Of a stretch of DNA of 64,000 nucleotides, positions 24,008 through 59,473 are shown in pieces. Source of the DNA: Patescibacteria group bacterium (GTDB taxonomy: Bacteria; Patescibacteriota; Patescibacteriia; UBA10025; JAHIVO01); the NCBI GenBank assembly GCA_041660605.1, contig JBAZWB010000001.1, forward strand, positions 622,503 to 686,502, read 5' to 3'. Both the position numbers and the translations under genes were made by a program. Under the pieces are notes generated by a model. The model searched no databases. It was not told the DNA's origin and saw nothing but the letters and a program-made list of their open reading frames with translations. Positions within the stretch are counted from its first letter, which is position 1. Each line of letters starts with the position of its first letter.

Positions 24008-25687
24008 TTAACTCTGTTGAATTTTATTTTTAAGTGTTCGGCCAATTAATCCCAGATGCTTCTCAAGCCAGCCAGAAACCAGCAGTCGTAAAAACGTTCT
24101 GGTAACGGTAATTGCCGAAAACATGCTGACCAAAACACCGATACCCAGGGTTATAGCAAAGCCTTTAATAACACTAGTTCCGAACCAGGCCAGGATAAAA
24201 CACGTAATTAAGCTTGATATATTCGAATCACGGATTGAAAGCCAGGCCCGACTAAATCCTTCTTCAATTGCCAGACCTAAATTTTTACCATCTCTTAATT
24301 CTTCACGTGTGCGCTCAAAAATAAGTATATTTGCGTCTACGGCCATTCCGATTGATAATATAAAACCAGCGATTCCTGCCAAGGTTAAAGTGATGCCAGT
24401 TAATTTGAAAATTGAAACGGTAATTAAGGCATATATAAACAAGGCGATAACCGATATCAATCCTGGCAGGCGATAATAAACTATCATGAATATAGCCACC
24501 AAAGTTAAACCGATTACACCGGCTAATAAGCTTTTTTGTACTGATGCCTGGCCCAGTGTTGCGCCGATCGAATTTTGAGATACCAAAGTGATCGGTACCG
24601 GCAGAGCGCCGGCATTCAACCTCTGTACAAGCATTTTAGCTTCTTCAAGAGTAAATCCACCACCACCTGATATTACCGCACTACCATCTAAAATTGGCTC
24701 ATTCACTTTCGGTAAGGAGATCGGAGAACCATCCAAATATATGCCAACCACTTTACCGACATTTCGTTTTGTAATTTCAGCAAATAAATCCCTTCCTTCT
24801 GTATTAAATTCCAGCAAGACCTGGGGCTCATTTGTGTTTTGATCAAATTGGACGGAAGCGCGTTTTAATTCTTTACCCGAAAGTCCAGTATTGGTAAATT
24901 GCGTCTGCCCTGTAGTTGACTGTTTAGTAAATAGAATATGACTGGCGCTGACTTGATTGTCCTTTTCTCCAGTTTTTTTGATGATATGATAACCAAAATC
25001 CGTTTCTACGATCTCAGGATAGATTTCGTCAACTTTCATCTTATCAAAAACTACATTGGCAAATTCAGGCACCATCTGTTCTCTGGTAAAAAAGCCGAGA
25101 TCACCACCTTTTTTCTCTTGAGTTGTCTGATCGGTATTTCCCGGATCCTGCGAATATTGGTTAGCTAAAGCTGCAAAATCTGCGTTAGGCTTGAGTGCTT
25201 CCTGCAGAATTTCAGCCGCTTTTTGCTTAGCCTGAGCATTTGCATCGTCAATGGTTTTAATCTGATCAGCAGTAAGCGTGGTAGTAGTCTCCTCTTTAAA
25301 TTCCAAAAGAGGGGTCTCACCAATCATTTTTATTGCTTCATCGACATTTGTAACGCCAGCTAATTCCACAATAACCCGCCATTTTTCCCCTACTTTACTA
25401 GTTTGTATAACAGGCTCGGAAACGCCAAAAGCATTTACCCTGCGTTCAATTACGTCACGGACGCCATCAATAGAGGAGGCCTGGTCAGCGGCTGGAACTT
25501 GAGAAACATTCGCATCATATACTAATTGGGTTCCTCCCTGTAAATCCAAGCCTAAATGAATTTTTACTTCTTTAAAATAACTGCCAATATGGATATCCGG
25601 GCCTTTAGGATAAGCAAATAAACCGGCCAAAATAGCCAAAATAATAATACCCGCAAATGTCAGCCAGATTTTTTTCCTAAAACTCAT
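24008..25687 (-). CDS. secD: Protein translocase subunit SecD carrying a parvulin-like (PpiC-type) PPIase domain inserted in the periplasmic P1 head
   Basis: SecD motifs GLDLQGGTQLVYDANV, GETPLLEF and LNAGALPVP are present, with the RND-like TM bundle. Inside P1, roughly aa 140-250, lies DFAALANQYSQDPG...GGDLGFFTREQMVPEFANVVF...TDFGYHIIKK...SASHILF. Confidence 0.88.
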   Translation of the reverse strand: MSFRKKIWLTFAGIIILAILAGLFAYPKGPDIHIGSYFKEVKIHLGLDLQGGTQLVYDANVSQVPAADQASSIDGVRDVIERRVNAFGVSEPVIQTSKVGEKWRVIVELAGVTNVDEAIKMIGETPLLEFKEETTTTLTADQIKTIDDANAQAKQKAAEILQEALKPNADFAALANQYSQDPGNTDQTTQEKKGGDLGFFTREQMVPEFANVVFDKMKVDEIYPEIVETDFGYHIIKKTGEKDNQVSASHILFTKQSTTGQTQFTNTGLSGKELKRASVQFDQNTNEPQVLLEFNTEGRDLFAEITKRNVGKVVGIYLDGSPISLPKVNEPILDGSAVISGGGGFTLEEAKMLVQRLNAGALPVPITLVSQNSIGATLGQASVQKSLLAGVIGLTLVAIFMIVYYRLPGLISVIALFIYALITVSIFKLTGITLTLAGIAGFILSIGMAVDANILIFERTREELRDGKNLGLAIEEGFSRAWLSIRDSNISSLITCFILAWFGTSVIKGFAITLGIGVLVSMFSAITVTRTFLRLLVSGWLEKHLGLIGRTLKNKIQQS

Positions 25688-25780: not shown

Positions 25781-27187
25781 CTATGGCTGAACAATTACCG
25801 TTGTGCCAATAGATGTGAAATTATAGAGCCATTCTGCATCCGGATAAGCAATATTTACGCAGCCATGACTCATCTTATGTCCAAAATTGTTATGCCAATA
25901 GGCTCCATGCAATAACCGGCTGCCATCAAAACGCATGTTCCACAAAGTATTTGGTAAATAGTAATCCGGACCGGAATAAAGCTTTGAATAAATTTTTTGG
26001 CTGACCTTAAAATTTCCAGGCTGCGTATCCATTCCTGGGATTCCAGTTGAAACTAAAAAAGTTTTTAATAGCAGGCCGCCTTCGTAGGCCCACAATCTTT
26101 GTTCTGATATATCAACAAGAATTTTTGAAACTTTACCCTGATAATTTTTTTTATTTGGTATAGTTATTAGTTCATCATCTCCATCTCCATTAATGTCACC
26201 GCTTGCAATATTTACTCCGCCTCTGAAATCATTTTCATATGCAAAGAAATTTAGACTTTTCACTTCTCCATAAGCCTCAAAAGCTCTGACTTGCGGCCCC
26301 CCGCCTGTATTAGCTGCCGCGACTATTTCATCTAATCCGTCTCCGTCAATATCCGCACCGGCTAAATTTACCCCACCCATAAAATTTTGTGGAAAAGCTT
26401 TAAACTCGCCTAATGGCGGCTGATTAGCACCAACTTTAATTACTTTTATCCAGGCGGAGTCCTGGCTTTGAACACCGAGAATTAATTCATCTTCTATACC
26501 GCCATCAACATTAGCGACAGCCAGACTAACGCCGCCTGTAAAATCTGGATGAAATGGGTAGACATTAAAATCCAGCTTATCGCCATAACGATTAAAGATA
26601 TTTACTTTCGGTTCAGTATTATAAGCTGGAGCTACGATAATTTCTTTCAGTCCGCCTCCGTCAATATCCCCTACTGCAACATTAAATCCAGCTTTCATAT
26701 TTCTGTCATAGGCAAAAAATCCGGGAGTAAATACCGGTTCACCATATCTATTAAATACTCTAATATGGGCCGAGCCTTCTGATTTCGGTGCTGTTACTAT
26801 TTCCGCATTACCATCTCCATCCAAATCACCGCAAGCGACATTCACCCCTCCATGAAATTTGACGTCATAAGCAAAAAATCCGGGAGTAAAAACAGCGCTT
26901 CCCTTACTATCAAAAATTCTGACCTGAGGGCCTCCGCCTATACCGGCACTAACTACAATTTCATCGACACCATTCCCATCCAGATCACATATAGCAACCG
27001 ATCCGCCACCGTTAAAATTCTGTCCGAAAGGAGTAATACTATCCCGTATAGGAGAAGAATCAGCTTTAAATATTTTTATCTCTGTACTTCTTTCATCAAA
27101 CGCGCTAGCAATCCTAGGTAAAACAAAAAAACACGTTATTAATATAAATAATACGTATAATTTCAGCATTTTGCTGATTTTAGCCAT
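25781..27187 (-). CDS. Secreted FG-GAP/beta-propeller repeat protein fused to a C-terminal L,D-transpeptidase (YkuD) catalytic domain
   Basis: A signal peptide is present. Repeated GDLDGDGNAEIV, GDIDGGGLKEII, ADIDGDGLDEIV and GDINGDGDDELI motifs are calcium-binding FG-GAP-like. The C-terminus reads LHGAYWHNNFGHKMSHGCVNIAYPDAEWLY, the L,D-transpeptidase His...SHGC motif. Confidence 0.75.
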   Translation of the reverse strand: MAKISKMLKLYVLFILITCFFVLPRIASAFDERSTEIKIFKADSSPIRDSITPFGQNFNGGGSVAICDLDGNGVDEIVVSAGIGGGPQVRIFDSKGSAVFTPGFFAYDVKFHGGVNVACGDLDGDGNAEIVTAPKSEGSAHIRVFNRYGEPVFTPGFFAYDRNMKAGFNVAVGDIDGGGLKEIIVAPAYNTEPKVNIFNRYGDKLDFNVYPFHPDFTGGVSLAVANVDGGIEDELILGVQSQDSAWIKVIKVGANQPPLGEFKAFPQNFMGGVNLAGADIDGDGLDEIVAAANTGGGPQVRAFEAYGEVKSLNFFAYENDFRGGVNIASGDINGDGDDELITIPNKKNYQGKVSKILVDISEQRLWAYEGGLLLKTFLVSTGIPGMDTQPGNFKVSQKIYSKLYSGPDYYLPNTLWNMRFDGSRLLHGAYWHNNFGHKMSHGCVNIAYPDAEWLYNFTSIGTTVIVQP

Positions 27188-27842: not shown

Positions 27843-28223
27843 TTATTTTGAATAAAAGATAAAAAATAATGAGATGAAAGTTGACCAAAAAAACGCCGCA
27901 AGTAATAAAGTATTAAATATTCCCAATAGTAAGTAGCTGGTATTATAACCTTTTATAGCCAAATAAAAACTGCAAATCAGGGTGTATAGGCTTATTACAA
28001 TATACAGATAAGTCCAAGTATTAGCGTCGATTTTTTCAGAAAAATATGAATGAGATGAACCTAACTGGATGATAACTGGCAAAAAAAATAATCCAAAAAT
28101 TGTTACAAGCCACAGCAGACCCAGTGTTCCATAAACAAAAATCTTCTTTGAAACTCCCGGATCCTTTTCGGCTGTTTCCAATGGATTTGATGAATCTAAT
28201 TGAAAGGCTCGGTTGGTAGGCAC
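27843..28223 (-). CDS. Hypothetical 3-TM membrane protein
   Basis: Three hydrophobic helices. The gene lies immediately upstream of, and co-directional with, the ABC-2 permease. Confidence 0.4.
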   Translation of the reverse strand: MPTNRAFQLDSSNPLETAEKDPGVSKKIFVYGTLGLLWLVTIFGLFFLPVIIQLGSSHSYFSEKIDANTWTYLYIVISLYTLICSFYLAIKGYNTSYLLLGIFNTLLLAAFFWSTFISLFFIFYSK

Positions 28224-28229
28224 AATTGA

Positions 28230-29033
28230 TTATATGGCGATATCGCGTTTATTAAAAAAATATAAGGCTAAGCCGGTCAATAAGATTGAGGATAAAACAA
28301 ATATTAAAATCGAAGTTAAATTCAAGGTATTATGAATTAACGCGTCATTTGAGGAATAATAGTGAAAAAATGAACCGTATTTCAATCCATCGAAATTTTC
28401 TTTTAAGCTTGAGATTAAATTTAGGACATACATAGCGATCAAAATTCCTCCAGCGGACATATATACCTTACTGCGTTCAGAAAAAATAGCAGAGAAAAAA
28501 ATTGCCAAGCTAAAAACCGCCCAACCGAATAAAAATGAAATCAACGCCAATGAAACATAATTAGGAGCAACAAAATCAATATTATGAATTTTAGCCAGGG
28601 GGAAAACAGCGAAAATCGACGTTATTGAAAAAGCGAACAGGCTAAAAATACCAACAAAATATTTAGAAAAAAATATTTTTATCCTAGAAACTGGGCGCGA
28701 GAGAAGCAATTCTACCGTACCGCGTTCAATTTCCCCGGCTAAACTATTCCCCGCAATTGCGATCAGCATGAAAATGACCATTATCGGCCAAATTATGCTG
28801 AATTGCTCCATTGATAAAAAATTCTCAAGCGTATCAAAGGTTATTTCATCCAAACCAAAAGCCTTGGCAAAGCTTTCAGGATAGTTTTTCATAAGTTCGT
28901 TAAAACTCTCCGATTGCTGCTGAATTGAAGGAAATAATGCTATATACATCCATAATAAAACAATGCCCGCTAAGCAAAAAATTAACAACGAGATCTTCCT
29001 GTCTTTTAAAAACCTTAAAAAAATTACTAGCAT
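28230..29033 (-). CDS. ABC-2 type exporter permease
   Basis: Six TM helices. Size and topology are typical of an ABC-2 permease. It is 5 nt downstream of the ABC ATPase. Confidence 0.6.
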   Translation of the reverse strand: MLVIFLRFLKDRKISLLIFCLAGIVLLWMYIALFPSIQQQSESFNELMKNYPESFAKAFGLDEITFDTLENFLSMEQFSIIWPIMVIFMLIAIAGNSLAGEIERGTVELLLSRPVSRIKIFFSKYFVGIFSLFAFSITSIFAVFPLAKIHNIDFVAPNYVSLALISFLFGWAVFSLAIFFSAIFSERSKVYMSAGGILIAMYVLNLISSLKENFDGLKYGSFFHYYSSNDALIHNTLNLTSILIFVLSSILLTGLALYFFNKRDIAI

Positions 29034-29038
29034 ACTAA

Positions 29039-29908
29039 TTATTCGTAAAATTCTAAAAATATATCCTCCAATGCGGCCTGAGAAATGCTTAAGTCCTTAA
29101 TATTATACTTGCTGATTTTTTTTATTAGCGGATTGATATCGCCTTTGACGTTGATAACAATATAATTAGAAGTTTCTTTTACAAGTTCGTTATTCTCGTC
29201 TATAAATTCATCCTTATTAAAACTACCGGAGAAATAAATATGCACATGAGTTAATTTTTTTTCTTTTAAGCTTAAAATGCTTTCAGTAGCAACAATTTTC
29301 CCTTTTTTTATGATCGCCACTCTGTCACATATCTTATCGACCTCGGATAAATTATGGGACGACATAAATATCGTTACTCCATTTTTTGCTTCTTTTTCCA
29401 GTAATTCATAAACCTCATTTTGCAATAACGGATCAAGAGCATTAGTAGGTTCATCCATAATAAGCAAATCAGGTCTGGTCATTAAAGCAAGAATAATCGC
29501 TAATTTCTGTTTGTTGCCGGACGAGAGCTGTTTTACTTTTATACTTGCATCAAAATCAAGAACATTCATCAATTCAGATGATCTGTCATTTTCTCCATTA
29601 AGATTTTTTACAAAGTTAATGTGAGTTTGACCGTCCCATTTTTCATATAAACGAACATTTCCGGATAAATAACCGATTTTTTTAATTATTTCAACGCTTT
29701 CTTTTCGCGTGTCTTTGCCAAAAATTTTAATCATTCCGCTTGTAGGCCTGATAAAGCTTAGCATGGCTCTGATGGTAGTTGTTTTACCGGCTCCATTAGG
29801 GCCTAAAAAACCAAAAATTTGGCCCTGATCAACATCCAAACTGATGTCATCAATGGCTTTTGTGTTTCCAAAATATTTGCGTAAACTGGATATTTCAATC
29901 GTTTTCAT
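29039..29908 (-). CDS. ABC transporter ATP-binding protein
   Basis: Walker A is GFLGPNGAGKTTTIRAM. The signature is LSSGNKQKLAIILAL and Walker B is LLIMDEPTNALD. Confidence 0.9.
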   Translation of the reverse strand: MKTIEISSLRKYFGNTKAIDDISLDVDQGQIFGFLGPNGAGKTTTIRAMLSFIRPTSGMIKIFGKDTRKESVEIIKKIGYLSGNVRLYEKWDGQTHINFVKNLNGENDRSSELMNVLDFDASIKVKQLSSGNKQKLAIILALMTRPDLLIMDEPTNALDPLLQNEVYELLEKEAKNGVTIFMSSHNLSEVDKICDRVAIIKKGKIVATESILSLKEKKLTHVHIYFSGSFNKDEFIDENNELVKETSNYIVINVKGDINPLIKKISKYNIKDLSISQAALEDIFLEFYE

Positions 29909-29961
29909 ACAATAATCATAGCTTAAACCAGCTATTATGTGAACGATATTTTTTCATTTCA

Positions 29962-30234
29962 TTATTTGCATACGCCTAGACAAGCGCAGTGATTTTCCAA
30001 AATACCCTCACTTTTGATGCAGGAAGGCCTTAAGCAATTATTATTTCCGCAAATTCCTGCACAATCCTTGCTGGTCTGACAAACCCTATCTCTTAAACCG
30101 GCTCCCGGATTTTTAATTTCAAGGGAGTCATTCGCTGGCCTTGTCTGTAAAAACCAAAGACCGGATAATATTATTACCAGCAAAAAAGTTAAGATAGGAA
30201 TTGTCAGCTTGGCATTTACTAATTTATTATTCAT
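29962..30234 (-). CDS. Small secreted cysteine-rich peptide precursor with a defensin-like CxxxC...CxC pattern
   Basis: An N-terminal signal/anchor (IPILTFLLVIILSGLWFL) precedes a roughly 40-aa domain with 8 Cys: VCQTSKDCAGICGNNNCLRPSCIKSEGILENHCACLGVCK. Confidence 0.5.
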   Translation of the reverse strand: MNNKLVNAKLTIPILTFLLVIILSGLWFLQTRPANDSLEIKNPGAGLRDRVCQTSKDCAGICGNNNCLRPSCIKSEGILENHCACLGVCK

Positions 30235-47900: not shown

Positions 47901-48272
47901 TCAAATATTTTGCCTGACGACGAGAAAGGCGGATAGCAAAACGAATAATAATAGAATTGCCGTAAGACTGTTTATCAAATTTGTTAATATTTTACTCTTT
48001 TTATAAATAAAAAGAGTAATAATTGCATTGATTAATATTACAATAAAACCAACCAGCGGTAAAATATACATCTGATACCAATTTCCGATTAGATCAACGC
48101 CAAAGTAAATGTTATAATGCAGATAGATTGGCTGTTCTGATGGTTTAATATTTTGGTAAATATAGAGCGAGGTAGCGCAATTGATCGCTATCTGTAAAAT
48201 AAAAAAAATTATATTAGCTTTTGACTTAAAAAAATTATTGACTATTGCTTTATTGTTGGTAAAATTGTCCAT
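47901..48272 (-). CDS. Hypothetical small membrane protein
   Basis: Three or four TM helices. Only 6 nt separate it head-to-head from the GT39 gene, so the start is uncertain. Confidence 0.3.
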   Translation of the reverse strand: MDNFTNNKAIVNNFFKSKANIIFFILQIAINCATSLYIYQNIKPSEQPIYLHYNIYFGVDLIGNWYQMYILPLVGFIVILINAIITLFIYKKSKILTNLINSLTAILLLFVLLSAFLVVRQNI

Positions 48273-48278
48273 AGATCT

Positions 48279-50066
48279 ATGAATCCTTTTATTAAAATAC
48301 TCAAAAATAAACTTTTAATCGTTGTTCTGATGTTGGCTGTAATGGCTTTTTTGCAGATTTCTTCAGTCTTGCAGGAATCGCAGACAATTGATGAAGGAAC
48401 CCATTTAGCGGCTGGCTACAGTTATTTAGTTAAACACGATTTTCGCATGAATCCAGAACATCCGCCTTTTATAAAAGAGCTGGCTGCCTTACCATTGGTA
48501 ATTATAAAAAATAAATTATCTTCTCCATTCAATTACCCCAGCTGGGATGGTTACGATGAATGGCAATTCGCCAAAGACTTAATTTACAAAAATAACATTC
48601 AAGCTGATACTATCATATTCATAGGGCGACTACCGACGATCCTGCTAAGTTTATTGCTTGGCATCTACGTCTTTCTTTGGGCTAAAGAATTGTTTGGGTA
48701 TAAGGCCGGCCTTGTCTCACTGTTTTTTTATATCCTTTGCCCCAATATTCTGGCGCACGGCAGATACATAACAACTGACCTGGGAGTTACCGCTTTCTTC
48801 TTTATTACCATATATTATTTCTACAAATATCTCAAGTACGAAAATTGGAAATTTTTGATTTTAACCGGTATTTTTTGCGGTTTAGCGCTGGCCAGTAAAT
48901 TTTCTGCGCCGATTCTTCTGCCAATTCTATTCCTGCTTTATCTGATAAAAAAACTAACCGAGCAAAATAAAACCAGAGCGCTCCTGCTTTTCAAGAAATT
49001 GCTTACTACTTTCATAACCATTGTGTTCATCAGTGGCATAATCGTCTGGGCCAGCTATGGGTTTGAAGTAAAAAAACCGCTGGACAGCAAAGACGTTCAA
49101 GACTTATATGCCCTGCAGGATTATACCATCGCTTCAAACACAGTTGATCAGCAAAGTGAACTAGTGAAAAAAGTCATTAATTATACTGATACGAGCAAAA
49201 ATTCAGGACGGACGATTCGTTCAATATTGGAAAAAGTACCCATCCCGGCATTTTCCTATTTTGACGGACTGGTGCGGGTCTATCTTCATAATTATTATGG
49301 CCATCGTTCTTACTTGCTTGGCAACTACAGTGAACTAGGCTGGTGGTATTATTTCCCCGTCGCCTTCCTGGTAAAAACTCCTGTTACCACGCAAATTTTT
49401 ATGATCGTGCTACTCATAGCAGGGGTGCTGGCCTTAGTTAAGCTAAAAATATATAGATACCCGCTAAAAGCACTGGTAAAAATACCAATACATTGGTATT
49501 TGTTGATTATCCCATCGGCAATTTTTTTTGGTTTCAGCGTAAGCGGGCATATCAATCTGGGATTGCGCCATGTATTGATTGTTTATCCTTTTATTTATGT
49601 GTCAATTGGCTACCTTGCGTCAATTATTAAAAAAACACCCGTTAAAATATTATTTACGGCTTTTTTAGTATATTATTTTTTTACTTCAATTTTAATCTAC
49701 CCAAATTATCTGGCATATTTTAATGAAATCAGCGGCGGTCCCGGTAATGGTCCGAAATATCTAGTTGATTCAAATATTGACTGGGGGCAGGATGCAAAAA
49801 AATTAAAAAAGTATATGACTGTAAATAATATCAATCACGTTTGCTTGAGTTATTTTGGCCAGGCCGATCTGGAATATTATAAAATTGACTTCAGATATTT
49901 ACCCACTGTCTTTGACAGAAGCGGCATCAAAAATATTGATTGCGTGGTAGCAATCAGCGTTACCAGTCTCTTGTCAAAAGAACGGGAATATGGCTGGCTT
50001 CTGGATTACCAACCAATAGACAAGATTGGATATTCAATTTATGTTTACGACCTGAGAAAAAAATAA
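48279..50066 (+). CDS. GT39/PMT-2-like lipid-carrier-dependent glycosyltransferase (ArnT/YkcB-like)
   Basis: The N-terminus carries DEGTHLAAGYSY and EHPPFIKELAALPL, GT-C motifs, with about 11 TM helices. The C-terminal domain is periplasmic. Confidence 0.75.
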   Translation: MNPFIKILKNKLLIVVLMLAVMAFLQISSVLQESQTIDEGTHLAAGYSYLVKHDFRMNPEHPPFIKELAALPLVIIKNKLSSPFNYPSWDGYDEWQFAKDLIYKNNIQADTIIFIGRLPTILLSLLLGIYVFLWAKELFGYKAGLVSLFFYILCPNILAHGRYITTDLGVTAFFFITIYYFYKYLKYENWKFLILTGIFCGLALASKFSAPILLPILFLLYLIKKLTEQNKTRALLLFKKLLTTFITIVFISGIIVWASYGFEVKKPLDSKDVQDLYALQDYTIASNTVDQQSELVKKVINYTDTSKNSGRTIRSILEKVPIPAFSYFDGLVRVYLHNYYGHRSYLLGNYSELGWWYYFPVAFLVKTPVTTQIFMIVLLIAGVLALVKLKIYRYPLKALVKIPIHWYLLIIPSAIFFGFSVSGHINLGLRHVLIVYPFIYVSIGYLASIIKKTPVKILFTAFLVYYFFTSILIYPNYLAYFNEISGGPGNGPKYLVDSNIDWGQDAKKLKKYMTVNNINHVCLSYFGQADLEYYKIDFRYLPTVFDRSGIKNIDCVVAISVTSLLSKEREYGWLLDYQPIDKIGYSIYVYDLRKK

Positions 50067-50078
50067 GTATCAGCAACT

Positions 50079-50107
50079 TTGATTTTTTTGTAAGAATATG
50101 CTATAAT
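50079..50107 (+). promoter_or_regulatory. Sigma-70-like promoter for the pilus operon: TTGATT, a 17-nt spacer, then TGcTATAAT (extended -10). A GGGAGG ribosome-binding site sits 4 nt before the pilB ATG.
   Basis: The sequence reads ctTTGATTtttttgtaagaataTGcTATAATat. The RBS is acGGGAGGtcaATG at 50146-50157. Confidence 0.5.
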
Positions 50108-50154
50108 ATATTCCAGTTTAATCTATTTTAGCGAGGTAATTTTACGGGAGGTCA

Positions 50155-51888
50155 ATGATACCTAATAAAGAAATAAAAACCATCCTAGAAGCGACTAAAG
50201 CTGTTCCGGAAGAACAGCTTATTGAGGCATGGAAAAAAAATGAAATGGATAACGGGGATTTGGCTAGTTACCTGATAAATAAGAACATTATATCCGAGAA
50301 TATACTCTACGAAACAGCCGGAAATTATTACAAAATTCCTTTCATTGATTTACGGCGGATGAGCATCCGGAAAGACATATTAACGCTTATACCCGAGACT
50401 ATCGTTCAAACATACCAAATTGTCGCTTTTGACAAGGATGAAACTACTTTAAAAGTCGCTTCTGTAGATCCAAAAAATTTACAAATCATTGAATTTTTAA
50501 AGAAAAAAACCGGCTTAGCAATAAAAATACATATTACTACTCCCTCAAGCATTAAAGAAGTTCTATCGTTATTTCATAAGGGGCTATCTTCGGAATTTAA
50601 AAAAATCACTAAAGGTGACCTGCTTGGCGAAGGAGAAACTAAAACTGAAGATCTGAAGCAGCTGGCTCAAGATTTACCAATCGTCAGAATCGTAGACACC
50701 TTACTGGAATATGCAATTTTCGAGGGTGCTTCTGATATACATATAGAGCCAACCGAAAATGACATTTTAGTACGATACAGAGTCGATGGAATACTCAGGG
50801 AAGTAATGCGTCTCCCAAAAAACTTACAGCCGGGAATTATTGCGCGCATTAAAATACTTTCCAATTTAAAAATAGACGAACATCGATTACCCCAGGACGG
50901 CCGTTTCAAAATTTCTACCAGTGAATATAAGATTGCTTTCCGCGTTTCAATCATTCCTGTTTTTGACGGTGAAAAAATCGTTCTGCGCTTGTTGAATGAA
51001 TCCGCAAAAATTTTAACTCTTGAGCAAGTTGGGCTGCAGTTAAAGGCACTAGAAGCCGTAAATTTAAATCTAAGCAAGCCCCAGGGTATGATCTTGGTTA
51101 CCGGCCCTACGGGAAGCGGAAAAACTACCACCCTATATACCATTCTTAATATTTTAAATGACCCAAAAGTTAACATCGCCACGATTGAAGACCCTATTGA
51201 ATACCGCATGGCGAGAGTAAATCAAAGCCAGGTAAATCCAAAAATCGGCTTTACTTTTGCCGGCGGTCTCAGATCACTACTGCGCCAGGATCCCAATATT
51301 ATAATGGTCGGAGAAATTCGCGATGGCGAAACCGCTGAAATCGCCACCCATGCCGCTATGACCGGCCACTTGGTTTTATCAACATTGCATACCAATGACG
51401 CAGTTACCACTTTACCACGGCTTGAGGAAATGGGAGTACCACCGTTTTTGGTGGCCTCTACCACGAATATTGTTATAGCCCAGCGGCTAGTAAGAAAAAT
51501 TTGCATGAATTGCATCCACAGCTATACTTTAACAAAAAAGGCCGTGGACGAGTTAAAGAAAAAAATCGACCTGGGCTCAATTTTCAATGTTCTGGAGAGC
51601 CAGGGCATAATTCTTTCTTCAAAAACTCCGATAGAATCACTATTATTTTATAAAGGCAAAGGATGCAAACAATGCAATAACACAGGCTATAAAGGCCGGA
51701 TTGGCATTTTTGAAGTTGTGGAAATTACCAGTCAAATAGCGCAAATGATTACAGAAAAAACTTCAGCAGCAAAAATATTAGAACACGCCAGATCAAAAGG
51801 CATGCTGACTATGATTGAGGATGGTTTCATCAAAGCAAAAAATGGTGTAACTACGATTGAAGAAATATTAAGGGCAACTAAAGAATAA
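50155..51888 (+). CDS. pilB: Type IV pilus assembly ATPase PilB (GspE family)
   Basis: A GSPII_E N-terminal domain is followed by Walker A GPTGSGKTTTLY and the Asp and His boxes. A tetracysteine CMNC...CKQC motif is present. Confidence 0.9.
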   Translation: MIPNKEIKTILEATKAVPEEQLIEAWKKNEMDNGDLASYLINKNIISENILYETAGNYYKIPFIDLRRMSIRKDILTLIPETIVQTYQIVAFDKDETTLKVASVDPKNLQIIEFLKKKTGLAIKIHITTPSSIKEVLSLFHKGLSSEFKKITKGDLLGEGETKTEDLKQLAQDLPIVRIVDTLLEYAIFEGASDIHIEPTENDILVRYRVDGILREVMRLPKNLQPGIIARIKILSNLKIDEHRLPQDGRFKISTSEYKIAFRVSIIPVFDGEKIVLRLLNESAKILTLEQVGLQLKALEAVNLNLSKPQGMILVTGPTGSGKTTTLYTILNILNDPKVNIATIEDPIEYRMARVNQSQVNPKIGFTFAGGLRSLLRQDPNIIMVGEIRDGETAEIATHAAMTGHLVLSTLHTNDAVTTLPRLEEMGVPPFLVASTTNIVIAQRLVRKICMNCIHSYTLTKKAVDELKKKIDLGSIFNVLESQGIILSSKTPIESLLFYKGKGCKQCNNTGYKGRIGIFEVVEITSQIAQMITEKTSAAKILEHARSKGMLTMIEDGFIKAKNGVTTIEEILRATKE

Positions 51889-51890
51889 TT

Positions 51891-53108
51891 ATGTCAGAAT
51901 TCAACTACACTGCCAGAACACAGGATGGCCAATTAAAAAAGGATCGGATTCGCATCAAGGACAAGAAAGCTCTGGCCGAATACCTGAAAAATCAAAATCT
52001 AATTTTAACTTCTTCGAAAGAAATTAAAAAAGGAGGGAGGTTTTCCCTGCAAAATCTTCTGGATAATTTATCCAGCGTCCCTATCGTTCAAAAAATATTT
52101 TTTACCCAAAATCTTTCTATCATGGTAAAAACCGGATTTTCACTCGCCGCTGCCCTAAAAACTCTGGCTCTGCAAACCACCAATAAAAAATTCCGTAATA
52201 TTTTGATAGAGATTCAGCAGGACGTAGAAAGCGGTATTTCATTTTCCAGCGCCTTGGCAAAATATCCGAAAGTTTTTCCGGAACTTTTTGTCAATATGAT
52301 TTCGGCTGGTGAAGCCAGCGGTAAACTTGATGAAATACTGATACACCTCACTGTTCAAATGAAAAAAGATCATACCATAATTTCTAAAGTAAGGTCAGCC
52401 ATGATGTATCCCTCGGTAATCGTGGTAGCCATGGTTGGTATTGGCGTAGTTATGCTGATAACAGTCATACCGCAAATGTCCTCAATTTATGCCGAAGGCG
52501 GCACTGAATTACCTTTACCAACTAAAATTTTACTGGGATTCAGCAGTTTTGTTTTAAATCAAGGTGTTTTCCTTTTGATTGCCGTATTTATTTTACTGAT
52601 TTTATTTATTAGATTAAAAAAGACTAAAAAGGGCAAACTGCTTTTGCATAAATTTCTTTTGAAACTGCCAATTTTTGGCGCGATAATCGTTAAAATTAAT
52701 ATTACTCGTTTCAGCAGGACGTTAAGTTCACTTTTAAAAACTGACATTCCAATCGTACAAACCCTACAGATCATTTCCAAGACTTTAGGCAATATATATT
52801 TCAAAAACGCCCTTATTAATGCTTCAGATAAGGTAAAAAAAGGTATCAGCATCTCAAAAACATTAGAACAGACGCCAAAACTATTTTCGCCCTTAATCAC
52901 GCAAATGATCAATATAGGCGAAGAAAGCGGTTCATTGGACACTATCTCCGAACAGATAGCGAACTTTTACGAAGAAGACGTTGACCAAACGATGTCTTCA
53001 TTGTCAACGATTATTGAGCCAATTTTAATGCTGATAATCGGAGCAGTAGTCGCTTTTGTCGCCCTCTCCGTATTGATGCCCATGTATGGATTGGTTCAAG
53101 CAATATAA
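51891..53108 (+). CDS. pilC: Type IV pilus inner-membrane platform protein PilC (GspF family)
   Basis: Two T2SSF repeats and three TM helices, immediately after pilB. Confidence 0.9.
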   Translation: MSEFNYTARTQDGQLKKDRIRIKDKKALAEYLKNQNLILTSSKEIKKGGRFSLQNLLDNLSSVPIVQKIFFTQNLSIMVKTGFSLAAALKTLALQTTNKKFRNILIEIQQDVESGISFSSALAKYPKVFPELFVNMISAGEASGKLDEILIHLTVQMKKDHTIISKVRSAMMYPSVIVVAMVGIGVVMLITVIPQMSSIYAEGGTELPLPTKILLGFSSFVLNQGVFLLIAVFILLILFIRLKKTKKGKLLLHKFLLKLPIFGAIIVKINITRFSRTLSSLLKTDIPIVQTLQIISKTLGNIYFKNALINASDKVKKGISISKTLEQTPKLFSPLITQMINIGEESGSLDTISEQIANFYEEDVDQTMSSLSTIIEPILMLIIGAVVAFVALSVLMPMYGLVQAI

Positions 53109-53109
53109 A

Positions 53110-55401
53110 ATGAAAAAAAATCATTTAAATAATCAGCGCGGTTATTCATTGCCGGAAGTTCTCATCGTACTTCTGGTTTTTACCGGGATGTTCATAGTCA
53201 TGCTGAATCTCTTCCAAAATTCGATAAAACAGCTGAACATCGCCCGGGCTAAAATTGTAGCCATTGAGCTTGGCAATGAACAGATGGAAATTTTAAGGAA
53301 CCTCCAGTACAGCGATGTCGGGGTGACCGGCAGCTCCCCTAACGGTACCATACCGGCTTCACAGGAATTGACCCGTTCAAACATCAAATTTAAAATCGAA
53401 ACGGAAATAAAGTATATCGATGATCCATTTGACGGCTGTGTCGGTGAAATTCCCGGCGAGCCCGGCAAATCCCGCTGCGCTGACGGAACCATAGTCGATA
53501 AAGTCCCTGATATACCCGCCAATAGCAATAATCCAGCAGATTATAAAAAAGCTAATATTGAGATAAGCTGGACGGAAAGCTACCCGGGCAAGCCAATTCA
53601 GCTGTCAACCATCATTGCCCCAAAAGGACTGGAGGGAGATACCACTAAAGGATTTATGCTGGTGACTATTTTTAACTCCGCTGGCGATCCTGTAGTAAAC
53701 GCTGATGTGGAAGTTATTAACAATACCCTGGTCCCGGCGTTTGATTATCATGGAAAAACGGATATCTATGGCACCGTGCAGTTGTACGACCTTGAACCGG
53801 CTGAAGACAGCTACATAGTCAAGGCCAGCTATGATGCGGAAAATTACAGCCATGACCAAACCTGCGCCCAGGACGACGCGGGAACCGGCTGCAGCGACAG
53901 TACGGGCAATCCCCTACCAATCAAACAAAACCTGACCATTTCAGCCGGCCATAACGAGGAAATAAGTTTTGCCATAGATAAACTAAGCAATCTCTCAGTC
54001 AACAGCTATACGGATAATTGTACCGCTTTGCCAAATATTGATTTGACCCTGAGCGGCGATAAAAAAATAAGCCAACCGCCGACCAGCTATTTAAAAAATG
54101 TTTTAAATTTCGTCACCAACGGTTCTGGCCAGACAAATTTACCGGCAGTTGAATGGGATTTGTACGATTTGCTGGTCAATACGCCTGGTTATGATATTGC
54201 CGGCGTAAACCATGACCTAGCCTTAAACGTCCTGCCTGACACCAGCATCGTGCTGAACGTGCTGTTGGCGCCTCATACCAGCAATTCTCTGCTATTAACC
54301 GTAAAAGACAATAATGGCACCAATTTATCCAACGCCAGCGTCAGGCTGAGAAAAGCTGATTATGATGAAACAAAAATAACCGGTCATGGGTTTATGCAGC
54401 AAACCGACTGGCTTGGCGGCAGCGGCCAGGAAAATTTTATTGATGATTCGACAAAATATTATTCTGACAACGGTAATATTGACAACAACACGAGCGGTGA
54501 GATTAGCCTTAAAAAGATTTCCTTGAATCCTTCTTTCAACGAAACTTTTGACTCAAGTACTTACCAAGACGCTGCTAATACTACCGCGGATTGGAACACT
54601 GCCGACCTGGAATTAAAGCTGCCAACTGTCAGTGGTGAATATCCAGTCGGCGTCATGCACCACGCCCAGACGACAATTATTAATTCCCAACATGGCAGGA
54701 TCGTTTCTGCCACCTTGAATGCCACTGAAGAGCTGAATGGACAATCAATCCTATATTTCCTCTCCGCCGACGGTGGAACGAACTTTGAACCTGTCAGCTT
54801 AGGCACTCCTTACGATTTCATGAATTCAGGCAGCGATTTACGGTGGCGTACGGAATTGATTTCTTCCGAAATCGATAAGACCCCAATAGTAAAAGATTTT
54901 ACGGTCAGCTATACGCTGGAATATTATGAGCAAAGCGGCGAGCTTATATCCTCAACTTTTGACTTAGGCTCGACAGCTGATTTTTCTTCCATTAACTGGG
55001 AGCCTAGCAGCCAGCCGGTGGAGACTGGTGCGGAAAACGTTAAAATCCAAATCGCCACAAATAACGATAATAGTACGTGGAATTTTACTGGTCCAGACGG
55101 CACCGGCTCTACCTTTTATAGCATAAATAATTCCACTATCAACAGCGCCAGCAATGGAAACCGCTATGTCAGGTACAAAGCCATACTCTCGACAGAAGAT
55201 GTTTACTTTACTCCAGCGCTCAGCAATTTAAGAATAGGCTATACGCAGGAATGCTTTCCGCCAGGCCAAGTTTTTTACAGAGATTTAACAAACGACACCT
55301 ACTCTATGGAAATTAAGCTTGCCGGGTTTGAAGTTTATTCGGCTAATGTCGAAATTAACGGGTATGTGACCCAAACTGTCCAATTGATTCCCACTTTATA
55401 A
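53110..55401 (+). CDS. Giant pilin-like protein with a prepilin-type N-terminus and beta-sandwich (CarboxypepD_reg-like) repeats. It is a candidate pilus tip or adhesin subunit.
   Basis: The class III signal is MKKNHLNNQRG|YSLPEVLIVLLVF, with Glu at +5. The 760-aa body includes VTIFNSAGDPVVNADVEVIN and LLLTVKDNNGTNLSNASVRL motifs. The start was set at 53110 to avoid overlap with pilC. Confidence 0.65.
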   Translation: MKKNHLNNQRGYSLPEVLIVLLVFTGMFIVMLNLFQNSIKQLNIARAKIVAIELGNEQMEILRNLQYSDVGVTGSSPNGTIPASQELTRSNIKFKIETEIKYIDDPFDGCVGEIPGEPGKSRCADGTIVDKVPDIPANSNNPADYKKANIEISWTESYPGKPIQLSTIIAPKGLEGDTTKGFMLVTIFNSAGDPVVNADVEVINNTLVPAFDYHGKTDIYGTVQLYDLEPAEDSYIVKASYDAENYSHDQTCAQDDAGTGCSDSTGNPLPIKQNLTISAGHNEEISFAIDKLSNLSVNSYTDNCTALPNIDLTLSGDKKISQPPTSYLKNVLNFVTNGSGQTNLPAVEWDLYDLLVNTPGYDIAGVNHDLALNVLPDTSIVLNVLLAPHTSNSLLLTVKDNNGTNLSNASVRLRKADYDETKITGHGFMQQTDWLGGSGQENFIDDSTKYYSDNGNIDNNTSGEISLKKISLNPSFNETFDSSTYQDAANTTADWNTADLELKLPTVSGEYPVGVMHHAQTTIINSQHGRIVSATLNATEELNGQSILYFLSADGGTNFEPVSLGTPYDFMNSGSDLRWRTELISSEIDKTPIVKDFTVSYTLEYYEQSGELISSTFDLGSTADFSSINWEPSSQPVETGAENVKIQIATNNDNSTWNFTGPDGTGSTFYSINNSTINSASNGNRYVRYKAILSTEDVYFTPALSNLRIGYTQECFPPGQVFYRDLTNDTYSMEIKLAGFEVYSANVEINGYVTQTVQLIPTL

Positions 55402-55413
55402 TAAAATACTACC

Positions 55414-56025
55414 TTGCTAATAATGAAAAATAAATCCGGATTTACACTGGTTGAAATAGTTGCCGTTATTTTCATCCTGACCTTAATCGGCATTGGTTTG
55501 GCAAGTTTTTCATTTTGGGGATATCGGTTATGGCATATCACCCAAGACCAAATTCACGCGCAGGATGAAGCCAGGGCGGCTTTTAAAAACATTGTGGGTG
55601 AAATCAGGGAAATGCAGATTTCAGATAATGGCTCTTACGCATTGGATACTGTACAGCCGAATACCATCATTTTTTACGCCAATGTGGACAGCGACACCAA
55701 AAGGGAAAAAGTAAAATACGAATTAGTAGACGGCACGTTAATCAGGTGGTATGAAAAATCTGACGCTTCCGTACCGCCGGCTTATCCAGCCTTCACTGAG
55801 GCTAATAAAATTATCGTAGCCCAAAATATTTTGAATACGGATATTTTCCAGTATTATGACGACACGTTCAATGGCAGTACGCCACCCTTGCCGCAACCAG
55901 TCCAGCTGAATGACGTTAGATTGGTTAAAATCCATTTATCGATAGATTACGATCCAGAGCGAACTCCTGCCCCGCTTGAGCTTGAGACTAACATCGCACT
56001 GAGGAATTTAAAGGACAATTTATGA
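55414..56025 (+). CDS. Minor pilin / pseudopilin-like protein
   Basis: The prepilin motif is MLIMKNKSG|FTLVEIVAVIFIL, with Glu at +5. Confidence 0.7.
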   Translation: MLIMKNKSGFTLVEIVAVIFILTLIGIGLASFSFWGYRLWHITQDQIHAQDEARAAFKNIVGEIREMQISDNGSYALDTVQPNTIIFYANVDSDTKREKVKYELVDGTLIRWYEKSDASVPPAYPAFTEANKIIVAQNILNTDIFQYYDDTFNGSTPPLPQPVQLNDVRLVKIHLSIDYDPERTPAPLELETNIALRNLKDNL

Positions 56026-57857
56026 AGAAATATTCACTAGCAGGCAATATCTATATCCCGGTACTGATAACGATAACTTTGTTTGTCAGCCTGGGCATCG
56101 TGGCTACCACTTTTATGTCCAGCCAGCATAAACTGGCTAATCAAGAAATTTATAAAGCCAAGTCATTTGAAATCGCGGAAGCCGGTACTGAATATTACCG
56201 CTGGCATTTAGCCCATGCGCAAACAGATTATCAGGATGGAACAGGCGCGCCTGGTCCCTATGTGCATACGTATAAAAATACCAGCGGTGAAAATATCGGG
56301 CAGTTTTCATTGGATATTACGCCTCCTCCTAACGGGTCTACAATTGTCTATATAAAATCATCAGGTAAAATAACTGATAAGCCAAATCTGAAAAAAATGG
56401 TAAAAGTTAAAATGGGCATCCCTTCTTTTACTAATTTCGCCGTAGCGGCCAATGATATAATGCGTTTTGGAGAAGGCACGGAAGTATTCGGCCCCATTCA
56501 TTCAAATTCGGGCATGCGTTTCGATGGTTTAGCCCATAATACGGTGACCAGCCATGAACCGACTTACACTGACCCTGATTCTGACAGATGCACTGCCCTG
56601 TCCTGGGGTGTGCATACTTGCGTAAATCCTGATGACCCTTCTCCGCCAACTGCCCTACCAACGCGCAATGACGTCTTTATGGCTGGACGTGAAGTGGATG
56701 CCGATTATCTTGATTTTGCCGGTATAACGCAGGACTTGCGAGATATGCAACTGGCGGCTGATGCAGACGGCATATACCTGACACCATCAGGAGGCAAAGG
56801 CTACCATTTGACTTTGAGGGCGGACGGGAAAATCGACATGCGGATAGTCAATTCAGAATTATACTGCCAATATTATAATGGCGGATACGGAAATTGCTCT
56901 ACCGGCGGATGTTCTAAACGAGTCTGTGCTAACCTGCCTTCACGCTCATGTACCAGAAACAGCAATTGCCCCTCATCCCCGGCACCGAGGCTTTGCCTGC
57001 CCGCGCAAACCTGCCAAATAAACGGCGACTGCCCATTGAGCGGAGTATGCCAAATGTACCCATGCAGCACTGATGGCGACTGTGACGCTGGTGGTATTTG
57101 TTCAAATTACAGAGATTTAGGCTATTGTTCCAATAATTTTAATCGTTCATGCTACCAGGACAGCGGCTGTACGTCTGGCGGTACATGCACTAAATCAAGC
57201 CATTCCATTGGTACCAGTATTGACTCAGAATCTGAATTTACATATGAATCAGCCTCTTCACTAGGCATTGACATACCTGCCAGCGGACTGATATTCGTTG
57301 AGGACGATGCCTGGATTGACGGTGTGGTTAATAATTACCGGGTGACAATTGTGGCCGCAAAAACACCTTTAGCCTCTGGCAATGCCAATATTTACCTTAA
57401 TAGCGATTTAGTCTATACTCCGCCAGGCGATGACAGCGGCGACGATGCCGTCGGTTTGATCGCCCAAAATAATATCTTAGTCGGATATTTTAGCGATAAC
57501 GATCTGGAGGTTGACGCTGCCTTAATAGCCCAAAACGGCCGGGTCGGCCGGCCTTATTACGGAATTTCCTCGTCCAGTTGGCACCTTAGCCCGGCCGGCA
57601 GCACCAATCCCGCCGGGGGTACTACCTGCGCTGAGTATCGGCAGCGGAACAGCATTACCAGCCAGGGGGCGATAGGCACATATGTTCGTTATGGCTTTGC
57701 CTGGGTAGGCAGTTTATTCACCTGCCCCGACGGGCATACCAATCAATCCGGTTATTGCACCAGAAACCTTATCTATGACGAAAACTTTTATTTTGCCCCG
57801 CCTCCCTACTTCCCTACAACCGGCCAATATCGTATAATTTCCTGGGAGGAAGAGTAA
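56022..57857 (+). CDS. PilX-like minor pilus protein with a very cysteine-rich insert
   Basis: An N-terminal hydrophobic helix (IYIPVLITITLFVSLGIVATTF) is followed by a roughly 110-aa segment with about 24 Cys: CQYYNGGYGNCSTGGCSKRVCANLPSRSCTRNSNCPSSPAPRLCLPAQTCQINGDCPLSGVCQMYPCSTDGDCDAGGICSNY... Confidence 0.5.
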   Translation: MKKYSLAGNIYIPVLITITLFVSLGIVATTFMSSQHKLANQEIYKAKSFEIAEAGTEYYRWHLAHAQTDYQDGTGAPGPYVHTYKNTSGENIGQFSLDITPPPNGSTIVYIKSSGKITDKPNLKKMVKVKMGIPSFTNFAVAANDIMRFGEGTEVFGPIHSNSGMRFDGLAHNTVTSHEPTYTDPDSDRCTALSWGVHTCVNPDDPSPPTALPTRNDVFMAGREVDADYLDFAGITQDLRDMQLAADADGIYLTPSGGKGYHLTLRADGKIDMRIVNSELYCQYYNGGYGNCSTGGCSKRVCANLPSRSCTRNSNCPSSPAPRLCLPAQTCQINGDCPLSGVCQMYPCSTDGDCDAGGICSNYRDLGYCSNNFNRSCYQDSGCTSGGTCTKSSHSIGTSIDSESEFTYESASSLGIDIPASGLIFVEDDAWIDGVVNNYRVTIVAAKTPLASGNANIYLNSDLVYTPPGDDSGDDAVGLIAQNNILVGYFSDNDLEVDAALIAQNGRVGRPYYGISSSSWHLSPAGSTNPAGGTTCAEYRQRNSITSQGAIGTYVRYGFAWVGSLFTCPDGHTNQSGYCTRNLIYDENFYFAPPPYFPTTGQYRIISWEEE

Positions 57858-57866
57858 TAAGATTTT

Positions 57867-58925
57867 ATGAAACTAAATCCATTTAAAAATCAAATTGGAC
57901 TAGACATCAGCGATTTTAAAATTCGTTTTATTCAATTTCAACTTAAAAAAAAGCATAAATATGAACTAAATTCTTTAGGAGAAGTATCTGTTCCTGCTGG
58001 TATCATTAAAAATGGCGAAATTATTGACGAAAAAGCCGTGTCTGATCTGATTAAATCGATTCTTATCAGGCCTACATCCGGAAGAATCAATACAAAGTTC
58101 GTAAACGCCTCTTTGCCCGAAAAAAAGATTTTTATCAAAACAATTTCCATCCCTAAAGTACCAGAAAATGAAATTGATGGGGCGGTCAGCTGGGGCATAG
58201 AGCAGAATATTCCCGTAACCATAGATCAGGTAAATTATGACTGGCAAATTATAGAAAAATCCAATAATGACCCGAGTAAAATGGATGTACTGGTGGCAGT
58301 TGCGCCAAAAACTCTGGTTGATACTTACACCAGAGTAATTCAGAATTCCGGACTGATTCTTATTGGCCTGGAAAATGAATCAATTGCCATTGCCAGATGT
58401 TTATTAGACCAGCAAATTAACAAAAATTATTCTACCATGATAATTGATTTAGGCCGGAGCAGGACAAACATAACAGTTTATGCCAATGCTTCTATACAAT
58501 TGAATGCTACCCTGGATATTAATGGTACGGAAATGACTAAACAAATTTCCAAAACATTAAAACTGTCGGAAAATGATGCAGAAAAAGCAAAAATAATTTG
58601 CGGCCTAGACAAGCGTAAAGCTAAAGCACAAATTTTTACAATTCTAGAGCCAATAATAATCAGATTGGCAAATAAAATAACCGAGTATTTATCCTACTAC
58701 AATAATTATTTCCCAAACAGTCAAAAAATTAAAAGTATTATTTTAACCGGCAGCGCCAGTAGTATGGTAGGCTTAACTGATTATTTGAAAAACTTTTTAA
58801 ACAATGATGTAAAAATTGGTGATCCCCAAATCAATTTGATCTCAACAAAAAAAGAAATAAAACACGACCTGCTCTCTTTTACCACGGCTATAGGTCTAGC
58901 TATTAAGGATTTTAATGATATATGA
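57867..58925 (+). CDS. pilM: Type IV pilus assembly protein PilM (actin-like ATPase fold)
   Basis: QIGLDISDFKIRFIQF is followed by ASKHA-fold motifs. It is located upstream of pilN/pilO-like genes. Confidence 0.8.
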   Translation: MKLNPFKNQIGLDISDFKIRFIQFQLKKKHKYELNSLGEVSVPAGIIKNGEIIDEKAVSDLIKSILIRPTSGRINTKFVNASLPEKKIFIKTISIPKVPENEIDGAVSWGIEQNIPVTIDQVNYDWQIIEKSNNDPSKMDVLVAVAPKTLVDTYTRVIQNSGLILIGLENESIAIARCLLDQQINKNYSTMIIDLGRSRTNITVYANASIQLNATLDINGTEMTKQISKTLKLSENDAEKAKIICGLDKRKAKAQIFTILEPIIIRLANKITEYLSYYNNYFPNSQKIKSIILTGSASSMVGLTDYLKNFLNNDVKIGDPQINLISTKKEIKHDLLSFTTAIGLAIKDFNDI

Positions 58926-59473
58926 TCATCTTGAATTTATTAAGTCAGGAAGAAAAAAAACATATAAGCTTAATAAAAAATTATTTTATTATTAAGAATG
59001 TTTCTTTCTTTATAATCAGTTTTTTAATAATCATCGCGACTATAACTATTTTTACGAACATTTTATTAGAAAATTATCTTCAATCCCTAGAAACTCAGAT
59101 AAAAAACGAAGTAAGCATCAGTTCCGAAGGCAAGATTGCTTCCATTGAAGAAGCTATCAAAGAACTTAACTCCCAACTGCTCTTAGCGAAAAACGTAGAA
59201 GAATCATATGTCCTTTGGACAAAAATTTTGACTTCTTTAGTGGAGAAGCTTCCGGAAGGAGTAACGCTGAACAATATAAATTTAAACAGTCAGGCAATGA
59301 CTTTAAAAATCAGTGGCACTGCCGTCAACCGTGACGCTTACTTGAATACGAAAAGTTCCTTGGAACTTGTGCCTTATTTCTCCAACATATCGTCTCCTAT
59401 TTCAAATCTAACGAAGAAAGACGATATTCCTTTTACTTTTGTCGGTCAGCTTACGAATTTAATTTATGAATAA
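58922..59473 (+). CDS. pilN: PilN-like bitopic pilus assembly protein
   Basis: A single TM helix (FFIISFLIIIATITIF) and a coiled periplasmic domain. It is 4-nt overlap-coupled to pilM. Confidence 0.55.
   Translation: MIILNLLSQEEKKHISLIKNYFIIKNVSFFIISFLIIIATITIFTNILLENYLQSLETQIKNEVSISSEGKIASIEEAIKELNSQLLLAKNVEESYVLWTKILTSLVEKLPEGVTLNNINLNSQAMTLKISGTAVNRDAYLNTKSSLELVPYFSNISSPISNLTKKDDIPFTFVGQLTNLIYE

Follow-up and report, generated by a model that had tools for sequence, protein, structure and literature searches.

Reports of bacterial cis-defensins, small peptides of the cysteine-stabilised alpha-beta (CS-alpha-beta) type, have been confined so far to Proteobacteria (myxobacteria for the most part), one Acidobacterium and Actinobacteria (PMC11561630, PMC6989792). 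The 74 published members, sorted into classes I-V, are restricted to Proteobacteria (with myxobacteria among them), Acidobacteria and Actinobacteria (Cardoso et al. 2024, PMC11561630). Members of class V carry an extra C1-C8 disulfide and a third strand besides the three canonical disulfides (PMC11561630). Proteins with a predicted transmembrane segment were dropped from that survey (PMC11561630), so defensin-like families such as the one described here may have been missed systematically. The actifensins of Actinomyces, in which a defensin-like structural gene lies beside ATPase and permease genes of an ATP-binding cassette (ABC) transporter, have six cysteines, are cationic, bear a 32-aa leader, non-Sec in type and with a GA motif for cleavage, undergo ABC-mediated secretion and are of proven activity, and their conserved operon of 10-12 genes includes a protease and a LuxR regulator (PMC6989792). 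Here we analysed a gene for a 90-aa defensin-like protein in a 64,000-nucleotide stretch of contig JBAZWB010000001.1 from a Patescibacteria group bacterium (the whole stretch is called the window), where the gene is followed by a cassette of an ABC ATPase and an ABC-2 permease and by a small open reading frame (ORF), ORF126. The actifensin system is the closest described one for this organisation, to which a preliminary description of the DNA had drawn attention, yet its six-cysteine pattern, cationic charge, leader, protease and LuxR regulator all lack a counterpart in the Patescibacteria locus. A literature search on defensins and cysteine-rich small proteins in the Candidate Phyla Radiation and Patescibacteria found nothing relevant. 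We propose that the peptide is of the bacterial defensin-like (cis-defensin) kind and comes from a phylum for which none had been reported. For the locus as a whole, we lean towards an exported or membrane-tethered protein with a defensin-type knot, which would act as a binding or inhibitor module at the cell surface and whose adjacency to the cassette would be retained gene order.

In Patescibacteria, the 90-aa ORF represents a genuine accessory gene of rare occurrence. Of the six frames, the sense frame gives the highest codon score. With eight cysteines in 38 residues, as against 0.86% cysteine across the window's long genes, the ORF ranks first in cysteine density among the 334 stop-to-stop ORFs of at least 50 aa in the window. 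The C-terminal 40 residues of the translation read exactly VCQTSKDCAGICGNNNCLRPSCIKSEGILENHCACLGVCK. While a word-indexed homolog search with the peptide gave no match beyond the peptide itself, a full HMMER scan of 1.84 billion cluster representatives yielded eight small homologs with about 30% identity, and a profile search added three more, bringing the family to about 11 small homologs of 83-157 aa. Two HMMER matches of 1,000-1,400 aa (P0126 and P0131) were rejected as immunoglobulin-like repeat adhesins with compositional matches. All family members named by source belong to Patescibacteria or Kerfeldbacteria. Scans of metagenome, genome and viral collections for TGY at the eight cysteine positions, with x4 and x5 loop variants, gave no family member among the matches listed, as judged by a hidden Markov model (HMM) filter; a cysteine-codon DNA pattern of this kind has low specificity. 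In the alignment of 12 sequences the eight cysteines are invariant throughout, and G46, S71 and L86 are nearly so. The ratio of nonsynonymous to synonymous substitution rates (dN/dS) was 0.22-0.39 among closer homolog pairs with unsaturated synonymous sites, a range that covers these pairs only, synonymous sites being saturated between the window copy and every homolog. The preliminary description had considered that the cysteine-rich ORF might prove not to be conserved as a coding sequence; with eight invariant cysteines and this dN/dS range the ORF survives that objection, since it is conserved under purifying selection.

The eight cysteines lie in a compact C-terminal domain (Table 1), in which C58-x3-C62 and C83-x-C85, invariant in 12 of the 12 sequences, provide the CxxxC and CxC motifs that define the CS-alpha-beta signature; a GxC motif ahead of CxC, a feature of bacterial cis-defensins as well, is present in 10 of the 12 members and missing from the window copy. 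AlphaFold2 was run with the 12-sequence alignment on the full-length protein and on the domain alone. The full-length model has a domain with a predicted local distance difference test (pLDDT) score of about 90, made up of a strand (residues 46-51), a helix (55-58) and two strands (68-74 and 81-87), and the domain-alone model (pLDDT 84) has its elements in the same strand-helix-strand-strand order. In two Foldseek searches of PDB, CS-alpha-beta proteins made up almost the whole head of both lists; the 11 top matches other than YbjN were all of this type, mainly plant defensins and scorpion toxins, including the rice defensin OsAFP1 (template modelling (TM) scores 0.55/0.51, 30% identity), Ah-AMP1 (TM 0.59/0.58), brazzein, BmK M1 and further scorpion alpha-toxins; since no single match is significant, the evidence for the fold lies in the coherence of this list. 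The Pfam family AtDEF-like (PF25052) was matched by seven of the 12 members: two homologs, P0123 (28.4 bits) and P0122 (25.6 bits), score above its 25-bit cut-off, both across the full profile length, and four further members reach 11-22 bits. The score stems partly from the hydrophobic N-terminus. AtDEF-like proteins share with the peptide a hydrophobic N-terminus followed by a cysteine-rich domain of about 40 aa; they differ in belonging to plant hosts, whereas the present family comes from Patescibacteria and has a polar linker of 17-23 residues. Pfam Toxin_2 was weakly matched by two members. Among PDB sequences the best match of the domain profile was a bacterial cis-defensin, the myxobacterial xanthusin-1 (PDB 7UNX; E=0.27, not significant), which aligns over the C-x5-C-x3-C stretch with its 'N.DC'. 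A predicted domain fold of the defensin-like, CS-alpha-beta type is reasonably supported by these models, and the earlier reading of the CxxxC...CxC spacing as that of a defensin-like CS-alpha-beta peptide is borne out by the cysteine conservation, the predicted fold and the AtDEF-like matches.

The alpha-KTx6 toxins (HsTx1, maurotoxin, Pi1) have the pattern C-x5-C-x3-C-x5-C-x4-C-x4-C-x-C-x2-C. Their eight cysteines stand in the same order and nearly the same spacing as those of the Patescibacteria domain, to which classical plant defensins are less alike; the C5-C6 loop has four residues in the toxins versus 10 in the Patescibacteria domain. The alpha-KTx6 toxins were absent from the PDB profile search at E<=10 and show no significant sequence similarity, and the resemblance is a lead for the disulfide pattern, no evidence of homology. 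Because the cysteine order matches these four-disulfide toxins and the CS-alpha-beta rule, we infer a suggested pairing of C52-C72, C58-C83, C62-C85 and C67-C89. Class V cis-defensins also have four disulfides and a third strand, both of which are predicted features in our case; the cysteine order of class V and of plant defensins differs from that of the Patescibacteria domain, which has one cysteine before CxxxC, two between the motifs and one after CxC.

It is very improbable in our view that the eight cysteines bind metal (Zn, Cu or Fe-S) instead of forming disulfides, the protein then being a small module for metal binding or redox chemistry, plausible as this might be for organisms of anoxic groundwater with limited oxidative-folding machinery. 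In favour of it are weak PDB sequence matches to the zinc-binding TAZ2 domains of p300 (E 0.3-5), which are not significant, and the finding of no DsbB homolog in the 64-kb window; in addition, TerC, a metal exporter, adjoins the peptide gene in one homologous locus (L009) and the cassette in another (L004). Against metal binding stand the CxxxC...CxC defensin spacing, a predicted CS-alpha-beta fold with no zinc knuckle, Pfam matches to defensin-like and not to zinc-finger families, the predicted extracytoplasmic location and a DsbB gene near another copy of the peptide.

A common layout is found in all 12 members, namely a short K/R-bearing N-terminus, a hydrophobic run, a polar or acidic linker of 17-23 residues and the cysteine domain. 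The uncharged hydrophobic run spans 17-25 residues across the 12 members (20 uninterrupted residues in the window copy, behind a K-rich n-region at residues 1-9), averages 2.4-3.4 on the Kyte-Doolittle scale over 19 residues in the nine profiled members and ends in aromatic residues, often W-x-Y-Q; in the full-length AlphaFold model a helix covers residues 6-31. Of the Sec-type signal announced previously, the hydrophobic N-terminal segment with its K-rich n-region was confirmed, but the hydrophobic run is not followed by a small-x-small (AxA-type) site; in the window's YkuD protein, for contrast, a 15-residue h-region precedes IASA|F. All 12 members share a conserved A or G (G25 in the window copy) four to six residues ahead of the aromatic end, usually with I, L, V or S at position -3 to it. 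This small residue may mark a signal peptidase I site or may serve in helix packing, and the hydrophobic segment may be an uncleaved signal anchor. The N-terminal flank is net positive in 11 of the 12 members and the C-terminal flank net zero or negative in 10, and since these charges fit the positive-inside rule, they indicate an N-in/C-out topology in most members.

The domain carries a computed net charge of +1 in the window copy (isoelectric point 7.7) and of -4 to 0 across eight homologs (isoelectric points 4.1-6.1). A cationic mature peptide, the hallmark of antimicrobial defensins and class II bacteriocins, is thus not what the nine computed members encode, and a classical cationic antimicrobial defensin appears unlikely from these compositions. 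Xanthusin-1, which is closest in sequence among bacterial relatives, was inactive in antimicrobial tests (PMC11561630). One homolog, P0127 (157 aa, from a 1.1-kb JGI/ENA contig), has an extra C-terminal six-cysteine domain at residues ~95-157. The 16 best PDB matches of this extension, dendrotoxin K (E=0.013) among them, are Kunitz/BPTI proteins except for one designed mini-protein, and its match to Pfam Kunitz_BPTI is sub-threshold (15.7 versus 21 bits). If real, P0127 would be a bacterial defensin-Kunitz fusion, and its Kunitz-like domain would suit a module that binds or inhibits outside the cell. In the Kerfeldbacteria locus, DsbB (PF02600) is encoded five genes downstream from the peptide (L006:9854-10405). 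An extracytoplasmic location of the domain is supported by the flank charges, by the Kunitz-like domain predicted in P0127 and by this DsbB gene, and the peptide is probably displayed or released at the cell surface.

In the account that we favour, the K-rich region and the hydrophobic segment would direct the protein to the Sec pathway in an N-in/C-out orientation, and the acidic or polar linker of about 20 residues would present the 38-residue domain outside the cell. There the domain would fold as a cysteine-stabilised beta-alpha-beta-beta knot of the defensin type, probably with four disulfides. Cleavage at the conserved small residue would release a free peptide of about 65 aa; alternatively, the segment would stay in place as a membrane tether. 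Since it is neutral to acidic, the domain would more probably serve at the cell surface as a module for specific binding or inhibition than as a classical cationic membrane-active antimicrobial; in a neighbouring or host cell it could act on some component of the envelope, on a channel or on an enzyme. The adjacency of the ATPase and permease genes would be a retained gene order within a SecA-linked housekeeping block.

To place the peptide gene in its genomic contexts, we compared seven independent peptide loci. In three of them (the window, L006 from Kerfeldbacteria, and L011) the peptide gene is followed directly by the cassette, with gaps of 30-76 nt, whereas in the other four (L008, L009, L010 and L252) the cassette is not beside the peptide. 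The order in L009 is peptide, a 111-aa gene, TerC, YkuD (43% identical to that of the window) and SecD (63%); this locus is syntenic with the window in its YkuD-SecD part yet lacks the cassette. Unrelated genes follow the peptide in L008, L010 and L252, the last of which holds the closest homolog, P0122. In L006, as in the window, SecA (72% identical) lies two genes upstream of the peptide. Since the peptides of L006 and L011 fall in one subclade, the cassette adjacency amounts to only two independent observations, and at least one of them lies inside the SecA-linked syntenic block. Upstream of the peptide in three loci we also noticed a multispanning transmembrane protein of about 155 aa (L006:4830-5306, L008:721-1179 and L009:18-332; mutually 42-50% identical), which matches DUF4212 weakly (22 versus 30 bits) and has no homolog in the 64-kb window.

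The cassette has a much wider distribution than the peptide. The permease has 356 homologs at E<=1e-5; the best 120 of these are nearly all full-length (266-274 aa), are 47-63% identical and, where named, come nearly all from Patescibacteria. At five of five loci picked by permease similarity (L002-L005 and L253), the ATPase-permease pair is intact and the flanks differ, and a six-frame HMM search found no peptide homolog within 5-8 kb of the cassette at any of the five. In L004, the ATPase and permease genes are separated by an inserted gene of the bAvd/23S_rRNA_IVP family (L004:4038-4403). The window permease shares 55-60% identity with those of the peptide-less cassettes, with which it groups in a neighbour-joining tree, and 41-51% with the permeases of the other peptide-linked loci, L006 and L011, whose cassettes form a separate two-permease subtype while the window has a single permease; in the same tree the cassettes linked to the peptide are not monophyletic. 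The ATPases form one group (56-85% identical), the window ATPase being 56-61% identical to those of the peptide-less cassettes. It is a DrrA/ABCA-type nucleotide-binding domain (NBD) protein with a C-terminal domain (NCBIfam drrA 204 versus a cut-off of 312 bits) and has full-length PDB matches to Rv1218c and NosF, whereas no sequence relative of the permease was found among solved PDB structures. Curated cut-offs were missed for galliderm_ABC (155.5 versus 309.75), PmtA (151 versus 350) and PmtC (124 versus 375), the MutG permease family stayed below its cut-off (23 versus 117), and the scores for GldA and GldF likewise fell far short. No C39 peptidase domain occurs in the 289-aa ATPase, and there are no modification, protease, regulator or immunity genes among the neighbours of the peptide and cassette. 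Judged by these comparisons, the ATPase and permease are a widespread Patescibacterial housekeeping cassette and no dedicated bacteriocin pump.

These distributions bear most directly on the possibility that the peptide is secreted as a bacteriocin or signalling peptide of defensin-like type, which the ATPase, the permease and the protein with three transmembrane segments export, protect against, or both, in the manner of LanFEG(H) or the actifensins. We regard this as unlikely. The predicted defensin-like domain, the placement of the peptide gene immediately before the cassette in three loci (window, L006 and L011; gaps of 30-76 nt, with no terminator in the window), the ABC transporter genes of actifensin operons (PMC6989792) and the partial similarity of the ATPase to ATPases of lantibiotic protection and phenol-soluble modulin (PSM) export all fit it. 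LanFEG/LanH, McbEF and PmtABCD likewise pair a separate NBD with a permease of the ABC-2 type with six transmembrane segments beside a small peptide gene, but they differ from the window, which has a single permease gene and a phylum-wide, mostly peptide-less cassette. Set against this are the curated transporter cut-offs, all widely missed; the absence of the peptide from the cassette in five of five sampled loci, with which the window permease groups; the four of seven peptide loci that have no cassette; the peptide's own Sec-type N-terminus, with no double-glycine leader in the peptide and no C39 peptidase domain in the ATPase; the neutral or acidic domain; and ORF126, which has no counterpart elsewhere in the fetched loci. 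The preliminary description had read the region as a bacteriocin or lantibiotic export and self-immunity locus. With a cassette that is peptide-less in five of five loci, a peptide that is cassette-less in four of seven, missed cut-offs and a domain that is not cationic, this reading is not upheld, and since the ABC-2 system is orthologous to a housekeeping exporter that occurs without the peptide, the claim of export and immunity falls.

Another reading, quite improbable to us, would make the peptide a lineage-specific accessory partner of the ABC-2 exporter, such as an extracytoplasmic cap, a substrate receiver or a regulator tethered next to the permease, with no antibiotic role; a loose parallel would be the small periplasmic or lipoprotein partners of PF12679-type transporters, for instance NosL with NosDFY. 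It agrees with the recurrence of the adjacency in two cassette subtypes, single- and two-permease, with the predicted single-pass N-in/C-out topology with a linker, and with the resemblance of the ATPase to NosF over its full length. Most cassettes, however, function without the peptide, and the peptide is kept where the cassette is missing, including the syntenic L009; the permease, for its part, has no solved relative for modelling.

Several observations count against the exported or tethered surface module with a merely retained gene order. The adjacency is found in two diverged lineages (peptides about 30%, permeases 41-45% identical) despite changed flanking genes, and this persistence could reflect a functional link. 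In the actifensins, 12 of 14 operons have ABC transporter genes adjoining the structural gene (Sugrue et al. 2020, PMC6989792). The set of seven loci leaves P0123 (7.2-kb contig) and P0125 (MBU0597522.1, KKF61_00825; 157-kb contig) outside. As to the fold, the Foldseek E-values are all 1.2 or above and not significant, and the AtDEF-like score of the window copy itself, 18.0 bits (E=0.0035), lies below the 25-bit cut-off.

The four ORFs reported earlier are all present at their positions and all on the minus strand (Table 1). The peptide had been taken for the first gene of a co-directional run; this proved incorrect, as genes for an HD_4 hydrolase, TudS and SecA lie directly upstream on the same strand, separated by a 15-nt gap or overlapping, and genes for an FMN reductase, YkuD, SecD and SecF lie downstream of the cassette. 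Essentially every gene between positions 260 and 48272 (48 kb, ~45 consecutive genes) is on the minus strand, and because the run is this long, the co-directionality of peptide and cassette is no evidence of an operon. Promoter-like and terminator-like matches in the window equalled shuffled controls in number, so that these scans are uninformative. A search of the window gave no Rfam family, and no repeats flank the region of peptide and cassette, for which reasons a mobile island was rejected; no terminator, mobile-element repeat or RNA family delimits peptide and cassette as a unit.

ORF126 is called as a gene by NCBI and JGI and was passed over by another gene caller. Its sense frame has the best codon score among the six frames, and leaving it out would open a 402-nt gap in an otherwise tightly packed genome. 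No relative was found by blastp or tblastn in any fetched locus, and a protein of 122 aa with three transmembrane segments at the same position in L006 shows no similarity to it; by these searches ORF126 is an orphan. NukH is a small multispanning transmembrane protein that follows ABC-2 immunity genes, and the position of ORF126 can be likened to it.

Table 1. Positions of the peptide gene, its predicted parts and the adjoining genes in the window
Feature	Position	Strand	Evidence or remark
90-aa defensin-like protein gene	29962-30234	minus	ORF and translation; NCBI WCV50_00385, hypothetical protein
N-terminal hydrophobic segment, residues 10-29 (LTIPILTFLLVIILSGLWFL)	30148-30207	minus	putative h-region of a Sec signal or uncleaved type II signal anchor
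Eight-Cys domain, residues 52-89	29968-30081	minus	C-x5-C-x3-C-x4-C-x4-C-x10-C-x-C-x3-C; predicted beta-alpha-beta-beta (CS-alpha-beta-like)
ABC ATPase gene, 289 aa	29039-29908	minus	Pfam ABC_tran E=1.2e-26
ABC-2 permease gene, 267 aa	28230-29033	minus	Pfam ABC2_membrane_2 (PF12679) E=7.5e-19
ORF126, 126 aa, GTG start, ~3 hydrophobic segments	27843-28223	minus	WCV50_00400, hypothetical protein

[quoted passage not shown] Going further, episymbiotic Patescibacteria might display or release a defensin-type knot, fused to a Kunitz-like domain in one member, that engages a specific target of the host envelope such as lipid II, a channel or a protease; we hold this to be rather unlikely. If true, the Candidate Phyla Radiation would have its first family of defensin-like effectors, and the family's link to plant DEFL proteins, detectable in the sequences, would be relevant to the proposal that cis-defensins originated in prokaryotes. 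A more general lesson is that an ABC-2 cassette beside a cysteine-rich ORF in a strongly strand-biased genome is no evidence of a bacteriocin locus.

Three further features of the window deserve mention. The SecD homolog (24008-25687, minus strand) has Pfam matches to PpiC-type rotamase (peptidyl-prolyl isomerase, PPIase) besides its SecD domains and looks like a SecD-PPIase fusion. Adjoining it is a gene for a secreted protein with FG-GAP repeats and a YkuD L,D-transpeptidase domain (25781-27187, minus strand), which is also present in L009, again beside SecD (L009:2227-3669, 43% identity). The orientation of the genes switches at 48272/48279, and the plus-strand block that follows (48279-59993) encodes a PMT_2 glycosyltransferase and a PilB-type T2SSE ATPase, among others.

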